Shown: positions 39,998-40,419 of the stretch, piece by piece
Layout: each line of letters begins with the position of its first letter
Numbering within the stretch: position 1 is the stretch's first letter
Source of the DNA: Verrucomicrobiota bacterium
Lineage (GTDB): Bacteria > Chlamydiota > Chlamydiia > Chlamydiales > JAEYWL01
Length of the DNA: 64,000 nucleotides
NCBI GenBank assembly: GCA_023428915.1
Contig: JAEYWL010000046.1
Coordinates: forward strand, 3-64,002
Reading direction: 5' to 3'
The notes under the pieces: generated by a model
What the model saw: the letters and a program-made list of their open reading frames with translations, nothing else
Database searches by the model: none
Told to the model about the DNA's origin: nothing
Translations under genes and position numbers: made by a program

Positions 39998-40419
39998 ATG
40001 CGTCCTTACAAGGTTGTGAAAAATGAGCAATAGCTTTTGCAAAAGTCTATTTTTATAGTAACTGACCATATAAATTAATGAAGCGCGGTAGCGCTGACAG
40101 TGGTTAGACCCGCGTGAAGATATCTGCAGGGGCCTCCCTGCAGATATCGGAACGTGGGGTTAAGATGAAAAAATACACGTGAGCTGCGGTAGCAGCGACA
40201 GAATAAGTGGCGCTGCTACCGCAGCTCGATATCTTTTTACATATTTACCCCACGTTTCAGCACACCTGCGGCGGCTTTCACGCGGGGCTAACCTCTGTCA
40301 GCGCTACCGCGCTTCGAGTATATTTTCCAATAAGAAATTGTTGAAAGCGTCTATTGAAATTTGTCATTACGCAATCAGGGTCTAAGCTTTCATTTTTCAC
40401 AGCCTCGTAAGGACGACAT
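39998..40419. repeat. Palindromic element B: about 420-bp multi-level nested palindrome
   Basis: The outer arms at 39998-40028 and 40386-40419 pair. Inner arms gaagcgcggtagcgctgacag-tggttagacccgcgtgaa (40080-40118) pair with 40277-40315. There is a perfect local hairpin at 40119-40148 and a central 17-bp hairpin at 40181-40227. Confidence 0.8.

Follow-up and report, generated by a model that had tools for sequence, protein, structure and literature searches.

The window, a 64,000-nt stretch from the genome (G000; 2.68 Mb in 131 contigs, 42.8% GC) of a bacterium deposited under Verrucomicrobiota and placed by GTDB in the Chlamydiales, represents contig C68. At positions 39998-40419 it carries a large nested palindrome, referred to here as Element B, that takes up nearly all of the space separating the stop codons of two convergent genes. 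A Mip/FKBP-like gene (39311-39973, + strand) flanks the element at the left, and a gene for a 214-aa protein (40433-41077, - strand), which adjoins hipA, flanks it at the right. Element B is probably a gene-less copy of a mobile element with two palindromic layers, in which the core consists of the terminal repeats of a Y1/HUH transposase gene and the outer arms belong to a second system. Nothing specific to its own locus needs explaining. Element B is one copy of a dispersed family and occupies the 3'-3' gap, and any terminator effect would be a by-product.

The preliminary description of this DNA reported several nested layers of inverted symmetry, and all of them are present where it placed them. 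The outer arms pair 40001-40026 with 40390-40415 (26 nt, 92%) and extend, with indels, to about 39984 and 40432; on the right the weaker extension reaches the stop codon of the 214-aa gene. The GC-rich arms pair 40080-40118 with 40277-40315 (39 nt, 95%), the intermediate arms 40151-40173 with 40234-40256 (87%), and the central hairpin 40181-40200 with 40208-40227 (95%). The side hairpin at 40119-40148 is a perfect stem of 12-13 bp. The minimum free energy predicted for a 436-nt stretch containing the element is -229 kcal/mol as RNA and -142 kcal/mol as DNA, compared with -113 and -53 kcal/mol for shuffled sequences (z = -20.1), and none of 100 shuffles folds as stably. Nothing in the analysis supports a special role in cruciform extrusion or replication pausing, both of which had been raised. 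The features of the element are collected in Table 1.

Table 1. Features of Element B, with positions in the window
Feature	Position	Strand	Remarks
Left outer arm (terminal inverted repeat)	39984..40026	.	Best conserved at 40001-40026, CGTCCTTACAAGGTTGTGAAAAATGA; core AAGGTTGTGAAAAATG at 40010-40025
Left spacer	40027..40079	+	Holds a 12-nt perfect palindrome, CTTTTGCAAAAG (40034-40045)
Unit L	40080..40207	+	nhmmer 95.6 bits; covariance model (CM) 119.5 bits; stems backed by covariation
Unit L, head hairpin	40082-40095	+	AGCGC-GGTA-GCGCT
Unit L, long stem	40107-40115 with 40152-40160	+	
Unit L, variable 'side' hairpin	40119-40148	+	
Unit L, A-rich linker	40161-40180	+	
Unit L, tail hairpin	40183-40196	+	GCTGC-GGTA-GCAGC; followed by GACAG and the central loop
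Central 17-20-bp hairpin	40181..40227	.	Two tail hairpins back to back
Unit R	40208..40315	-	nhmmer 87.7 bits
Unit R, tail hairpin	40212-40225	-	
Unit R, long stem	40247-40255 with 40280-40288	-	
Unit R, shorter variable hairpin	about 40259-40276	-	
Unit R, head hairpin	40300-40313	-	
Right spacer	40316..40389	-	Kept in C101, C106 and C121
Right outer arm	40390..40432	.	TCATTTTTCACAGCCTCGTAAGGACG at 40390-40415; core GAGGCTGTGAAAAATG on the - strand, 40391-40406

The core of Element B is made of two units of about 112 nt, which nhmmer bounds as a + unit at 40083-40202 followed, tail to tail, by a - unit at 40316-40211. Every copy of the unit has the same plan: a head hairpin comes first, then a 9-bp stem with an inner variable hairpin, and, after an A-rich linker, a tail hairpin. 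The head hairpin (5-7 bp with a GGNA loop) reads AGCGC-GGTA-GCGCT or the compensated ATCGC-GGAA-GCGAT. The conserved 9-bp stem, GCCCCGCGT ... ACGTGGGGT, is preceded on its 5' side by TTAG or GCAG and encloses a hairpin that varies in sequence and length, of which the side hairpin is one version. The tail hairpin reads GCTGC-GGNA-GCAGC. The motif GCGGTAGC-N3-GACAG had been described as recurring four times and had been taken as a sign of nested palindromes. Three occurrences are exact (+ strand at 40085 and 40186, - strand at 40295) and the fourth is degenerate, with GCCAC for GACAG, although the octamer GCGGTAGC/GCTACCGC alone is indeed present four times. The motif is not a sign of nesting; it is the loop and closing pairs of small hairpins, and it is seen repeatedly because each unit has its head and tail hairpins in direct orientation and the two units are inverted.

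The fold of the unit is supported by covariation. Within the genome, RNAalifold recovered the three stems, with GC/UA swaps of 13:12 in the head hairpin. Among 86 units from other genomes, which were aligned to the covariance model and whose alignment is thus fitted to it, pairing holds in 99.3% of cells and double-sided changes occupy 134 cells, compared with 28.5 in shuffles (none of 500 shuffles reaches 134). Sliding of the stem partners drops pairing to 21-64%, and this control agrees with the model-fitted alignment, as does the within-genome MAFFT alignment. Two positions of the long stem are G.U pairs in 79 of 84 and 71 of 84 units. Since such pairs would be C.A on the complementary strand, the conserved fold is strand-specific. 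The selected fold thus belongs to one strand, as single-stranded DNA or RNA, rather than to a double-stranded cruciform, and the strand-specific G.U pairs fit recognition as single-stranded DNA.

Element B is not a single-copy sequence. BLAST of the element against the genome found 34 loci, and an iterated nhmmer search with the left half of the core as query found at least 43 copies of the unit at about 27 loci, a count that is a lower bound because many units lie at contig ends. Tail-to-tail dimers are present at C68, C101, C106, C121, C9 and C76, and the remaining loci hold units singly or in head-to-head pairs. Open reading frames (ORFs) of at least 150 aa contain none of the 43 units. The units occur in both orientations relative to neighbour genes and are also clustered around a transposase gene. 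The element is, as had been suggested, more than a terminator.

The two halves of Element B are not simple copies of each other. Unit L and unit R are 74% identical, whereas unit R shares 95% and 92% identity with its counterparts at C101 and C106. Across loci, left units are 95% and right units 92-95% identical, compared with 74-79% between the left and right units of one element. Left units are thus closer to left units and right units to right units, which indicates that the heterodimer, or the composite, is the copied entity. Copies of the entire composite, asymmetric spacers included, are found at C101 (90% over 420 bp), C106 (82%), C121 and C9, with a shortened one at C30; the left outer arm is found at C101, C30, C9 and C106. 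The left spacer is kept upstream of the head hairpin in C68, C101, C106, C9, C10 and C9a, including copies that have no outer arm, and is part of the long form of Element B's unit subfamily. Pairwise alignment found no homology between the right and left spacers. In the copies at C106 (14415-14734) and C30 (19494-19641) the centre is missing and GGGGTTAAGAT is joined directly to the opposite arm; such centre loss is what long palindromes tend to do.

The unit is found at both ends of Y1/HUH transposase genes. A search of the genome with Pfam Y1_Tnp (PF01797) returned two genes, on C96 and C127. The Y1 gene of C96 sits precisely inside a pair formed by a + unit (20680-20782) and a - unit (21364-21262), both with their tails toward the gene. 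The same bracket of + and - units surrounds Y1 at L042 (two copies), L066 (intact, 150 aa), L067 and L129, and the coordinates place units next to Y1 genes in G411, G395, G117, G304 and G342. Intact Y1 orthologues are bracketed by units in at least eight other chlamydial genomes. The site of the central hairpin in Element B is the position of the gene in the Y1-bearing copies (between the tails at C96, L042, L066 and L129). There are one to three Y1 gene copies per genome, and these are diverged.

The second Y1 gene of the genome (C127:22727-23190) is intact and encodes a 154-aa protein. The module upstream of it (flank 23171-23265) matches both arms of another feature of the window, Element A, with 94% identity over 48 nt at 35498-35544 and 78% over 96 nt at 35628-35722. 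By this match, Element A is probably a gene-less dimer of the module family of the C127 gene. REP/RAYT-like systems would be expected to show this pattern of two Y1 paralogues and two module families, each of which has palindromic derivatives without a gene.

The surroundings of both Y1 genes contain further repeats. On C96, positions 20570-20679 and 21365-21560 hold additional units and extra head hairpins, each followed by the same sequence of about 45 nt (TCTGTCAGCAAGRTTGGTTTATATCTG...) that is the outer arm of the ATCGC-type unit subfamily. On C127, the gene and its module are flanked by 125-bp direct repeats (22579-22702 and 23343-23467) that are 96% identical.

The Y1 proteins carry an HUH motif (HVH or HIH). 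Those of C96, C127, L066, L067 and L129 share the Y motif YIQNQ..HH (YIQNQEKHH, YIQNQEVHH or YIQNQQEHH, the last being that of C127) and a conserved C-terminal extension, FEEEY..FL..H...YD.RFV.G. The NCBIfam IS200 model gives the Y1 proteins 77.5 and 61.7 bits, and the RAYT model NF047646 gives 21.6 and 34.2 bits against a cut-off of 80. Among solved structures, those of ISDra2, IS608 and Sulfolobus TnpA come nearest (E about 1e-8 to 1e-9), and no E. coli TnpA_REP structure is among the PDB matches at E <= 1. TnpA-Y1 subclass 1.2 is defined by Y---Q--HH, a specific C-terminal domain and low copy number (Quentin et al. 2018, PMC6006769), and by its motif, C-terminal domain and low genomic copy number the protein described here would be a member. 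The published members are generally without terminal secondary structures and come mostly from Cyanobacteria and Bacteroidetes (PMC6006769), whereas the gene family described here belongs to Chlamydiae and has long structured terminal repeats as well as a population of gene-less repeats.

The unit is widespread beyond this genome. A degenerate unit pattern matched more than 106 loci in public genomes, nearly all of them metagenome-assembled genomes (MAGs) of Chlamydiae, Chlamydiales or Parachlamydiaceae, and the covariance model found units in 44 of 400 genomes of the order and in 34 of 216 genera. When a close Y1 orthologue is defined by at least 50% identity to the L066 protein, one is present in 26 of the 400 genomes. 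Units are carried by 23 of these 26 genomes, compared with 21 of the other 374. The dimer is also the common arrangement elsewhere, as 48 of 70 adjacent unit pairs are tail-to-tail dimers with a + unit followed by a - unit. No account of the unit family in Chlamydiae was found in the literature that was consulted. One Chlamydiae MAG, JABDDE01 (BWMinHeated_Nextera58_MAG2), holds at least dozens of unit loci, within L043-L122, among the matches listed; most of these are heterodimers that combine two head-flank types, each with about 45 nt of outer inverted arm.

The outer arms have a different distribution. A 22-nt version of the motif (up to 2 mismatches) occurs 13 times in the genome and in only three other genomes of the 400 (G014, G192 and G200), with no control matches. 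Its core, GAGGCTGTGAAAAATG, forms the inverted termini of palindromic elements of about 180 bp in G192 and G200, the interiors of which are unrelated to the Y1 unit. The motif is missing from 107 unit-bearing loci of other genomes. Since the arms bound unrelated interiors elsewhere and are missing from unit loci elsewhere, Element B is a true nested composite, and it has been copied whole to three or four other loci. An origin by nesting of a smaller palindrome, as had been suggested, is supported both by these elements and by the inner 236-bp inverted dimer, which is found in many other genomes and there has none of these outer arms. In other lineages the dimers are likewise bordered by outer inverted arms, about 45 nt long and different from one lineage to the next, and the nested architecture is thus a general trait of the family. 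The conserved core of the outer arm is subterminal and the outermost bases vary. No consistent target-site duplication is seen beside the copies at C68, C101, C30 and C121. No transposase gene of a parent element for the outer arms was found by a fuzzy search of the genome or by a pattern search of the 400 genomes in which the matches were inspected.

The outer-arm motif was also seen in other settings. The elements with unrelated interiors are located at L150:1335-1516 and L154:1507-1687 (G192) and at L151:1025-1516 (G200). At C101:9340-9400 a second, tandem copy of the motif (TCATTTTTCATAGTCTCGTAAGGGTC) lies about 20 bp past the right outer arm. At L032:1440-1800 (G014:C493) a perfect 26-nt copy ends a different nested palindrome, which is itself enclosed by repeats of the CAGGAT type (aacagggtaacaggatcg ... 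cgatcctgttatcctgtt). It seems that several families of palindromic repeats insert into or beside one another. The core GAGGCTGTGAAAAATG resembles a Shine-Dalgarno sequence followed by ATG; this possibility was rejected by eye, as the ORFs that follow have 3-30 codons and are not conserved.

The partnership of a Y1 gene with dispersed repeats has parallels in known systems. In REPIN/REPtron systems, REP doublets are mobilised by RAYT, also called TnpA_REP (Bertels & Rainey 2011, PMC3116915; Quentin et al. 2018, PMC6006769). As in these systems, the extragenic repeats occur mainly as inverted doublets, each able to form a single long hairpin, and copying acts on the doublet as a whole. Inverted copies of the repeat also flank a low-copy Y1/HUH gene, each Y1 paralogue has a repeat family to itself, and repeat family and cognate gene co-occur across genomes. 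However, a REP is a palindrome of 20-40 nt with a GT[AG]G (or CGTC) tag, whereas the unit described here has about 112 nt and three hairpins and comes with outer arms. The protein is also of class 1.2 (Y---Q--HH) rather than of the RAYT class 2 (Y---NP), and the host belongs to the Chlamydiae. TIRtrons, which are Y1 genes with long terminal inverted repeats (TIRs) on both sides, the repeats being able to build up dispersed families (Di Nocera et al. 2013, PMC3733652), are the closest published architecture. They too consist of a Y1 gene with long inverted repeats in place of REPs and of gene-less singles, dimers and clusters, and some of their repeats are partly self-complementary. Quentin et al. 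treated the TIRYTs under class 2.1; the sequence motifs of the protein described here point to subclass 1.2. The published GGGGWSAS motif is not present here, as judged by eye, the published cases come from Proteobacteria, Acidobacteria and similar groups, and no published TIR has been described with three hairpins.

The IS200/IS605 family, including PATE-type MITEs (miniature transposable elements with inverted repeats), is similar in the nearest protein structures and in the IS200 model score, and its left-end and right-end hairpins have a parallel in the head and tail hairpins, which resemble each other and share one orientation on one strand. The ends described here are 112-nt inverted repeats, whereas those of IS200/IS605 are distinct, with subterminal hairpins and no inverted repeats, and the one to three diverged gene copies per genome differ from the many near-identical copies of that family. 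No tnpB gene was noticed in the loci that were looked at, with no dedicated tnpB search made. Canonical REP/RAYT is excluded by the unit type and the protein class, and IS200/IS605 by the structure of the ends. By analogy, the Element B family would work like a REPIN, REPtron or TIRtron in kind.

Two other repeat classes resemble Element B in architecture. QMITE2 of Coxiella burnetii has 150-190 bp and direct repeats of 7-11 nt, serves as an IS1111 target and has no Y1 gene reported (Wachter et al. 2018, PMC5896051); these properties distinguish it from Element B. Compared by description, it is likewise a layered element of an intracellular bacterium with a REP-like palindromic core to which full-size versions add TIRs, lies for the most part in 3' untranslated regions (UTRs) and between genes, and is predicted to fold very stably. 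An IS1111-type target, as for QMITE2, was considered for Element B and rejected; the shortened units are central deletions of dimers, not insertions of an insertion sequence (IS), with no search made for the IS110 family. BIMEs are mosaics of a palindromic unit in alternating orientation with other short motifs, as is Element B, but differ in motif set, unit size and enzyme class. Integron attC arrays and CRISPR were also rejected since the copies are dispersed or inverted and form no same-orientation array with cassettes or spacers.

A model for the origin of Element B can be built on the observed fold, family membership, extragenic location and copying of heterodimers, and on the bracketing of Y1 genes and co-occurrence with them. 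Layer 1 (40080-40315) is a tail-to-tail inverted heterodimer of the three-hairpin module, and the module would serve a small Y1/HUH single-strand-DNA transposase gene of TnpA-Y1 subclass 1.2 as its long terminal inverted repeat. The dimer would relate to the Y1 gene as a REPIN does to its RAYT gene, or as a MITE does to its IS. Hairpins of single-stranded DNA are known substrates of IS200/IS605 TnpA and RAYT enzymes, which bind and cleave them (PMC6006769). In single-stranded DNA, such as the lagging-strand template, each module may fold its hairpins on its sense strand. By analogy with these enzymes, the Y1 protein may recognise the GGNA-loop hairpins and the conserved 9-bp stem with its G.T wobbles, and may cut and rejoin single strands; the entire dimer would thereby be excised or copied and then inserted again in intergenic DNA. 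Gene-less dimers would in this way be mobilised by the Y1 enzyme. In layer 2, the dimer would have come to lie inside an outer-arm element, and the composite would then have been copied as a unit to a few more loci.

The outer arms themselves could point to a different mover for the composite. Element B could be a conventional MITE moved by another transposase, for example of the DDE type, through the outer repeats with their core GAGGCTGTGAAAAATG, with the Y1-type dimer as a passenger that was inserted once. This proposal concerns what moved the composite and not the nature of its core. Arms of 26-33 nt with 92% complementarity, recurrence of the entire composite with its asymmetric spacers at C101, C106, C121 and C9, and the use of the same arm motif as the termini of the elements with different interiors in G192 and G200 are all consistent with it. 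However, no gene-bearing parent with such termini was found in the genome or in the 400 genomes of the order, the flanks have no consistent target-site duplication, and it is a subterminal core, with variable outermost bases, that is conserved. Moreover, Y1-type dimers elsewhere have their own outer arms, and the arms may be part of long Y1-type ends. A conventional MITE is considered rather unlikely.

The conserved fold could instead reflect a function as RNA, with the unit being mainly a small RNA, a stabiliser of the 3' UTR or a bidirectional terminator and its link to Y1 being secondary. Compensatory changes that preserve structure, two nearly invariant G.U pairs and the location of every copy outside genes are compatible with this proposal. 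The dimer tails also form a GC-rich hairpin of 17-20 bp with flanking A-runs and T-runs on both strands, and copies of the Coxiella QMITE yield small RNAs (PMC5896051). In contrast, positions 39500-40900 match no Rfam 15 family at E <= 1. A terminator consensus scan does not call the central hairpin, where the T-runs begin 6-8 nt past the stem; it calls only a 5-bp head hairpin, at chance rate. Both orientations relative to neighbouring genes, clustering around a transposase gene and the tight bracketing of Y1 across families are not expected of an RNA gene, and an RNA as the main identity of the unit is quite improbable. An origin in place by local inverted duplication, as a locus-specific DNA structure such as a cruciform, replication pause or recombination hotspot, would account for the extreme stability of the predicted hairpin and for the deleted centres at C106 and C30, which are expected of unstable long palindromes. 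The dispersal of the family over about 27 loci of the genome and 44 of 400 genomes, with unrelated flanks, and the closer similarity of each half to its counterparts at other loci than to the other half exclude a local origin, to which almost no probability can be given.

Several observations weigh against a mobile element driven by a Y1 enzyme, or limit its scope. No transposition, excision or empty site was observed; an empty site was sought in the only genome of the same family (G001), where just an FKBP paralogue of 36% identity and no orthologous site was found. At the ends of the element, neither a conserved tetranucleotide for cleavage nor a target site could be made out. Close Y1 orthologues are lacking in 21 of the 44 unit-bearing genomes, several of which are incomplete MAGs, and such genomes could reflect this incompleteness or hold orphan families. 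The G.U pairs are equally compatible with an RNA structure. One of the Y1 copies of G017 has stop codons, and the Y1 gene on C96 (20889-21223) is frameshifted. Since this is the cognate gene, the family in this genome is probably immobile now, and the divergence of 5-10% between composite copies fits an inactive family.

On a broader level, it is possible, and is proposed here tentatively, that subclass 1.2 Y1 enzymes, which have been published as orphans that neither resemble IS enzymes nor go with REPs, partner their own class of long three-hairpin extragenic repeats. Such a partnership would be REPIN/RAYT-like but of independent origin, and widespread in environmental chlamydiae and, by record titles, also in Berkiella-like gammaproteobacteria. 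It would be joined by a second system, that of GAGGCTGTGAAAAATG, which captures or targets other palindromes and thereby builds hierarchical nested elements. If so, the subclass 1.2 Y1/HUH proteins, so far without a known substrate or role, would gain a DNA partner, and enzyme-repeat systems of the REPIN/REPtron type would reach the Chlamydiae. The head, long-stem and tail hairpins would provide a covariation-supported substrate for the biochemistry of hairpin recognition. The family would also account for large intergenic palindromes that fragment environmental chlamydia assemblies, in which many units lie at contig ends, and would offer a marker of horizontal exchange among amoeba symbionts.

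Tail-to-tail unit dimers (57-75 bits) were also seen on contigs of Berkiella-like MAGs, at L046, L098 and L062. According to the labels of the records, the first two belong to JBIOEB01, 'Candidatus Berkiellales bacterium', and the third to CAZCXZ01, 'Candidatus Berkiella sp.' Berkiella-like gammaproteobacteria are also amoeba symbionts. These units reflect either horizontal transfer across phyla or mis-binned chlamydial contigs.

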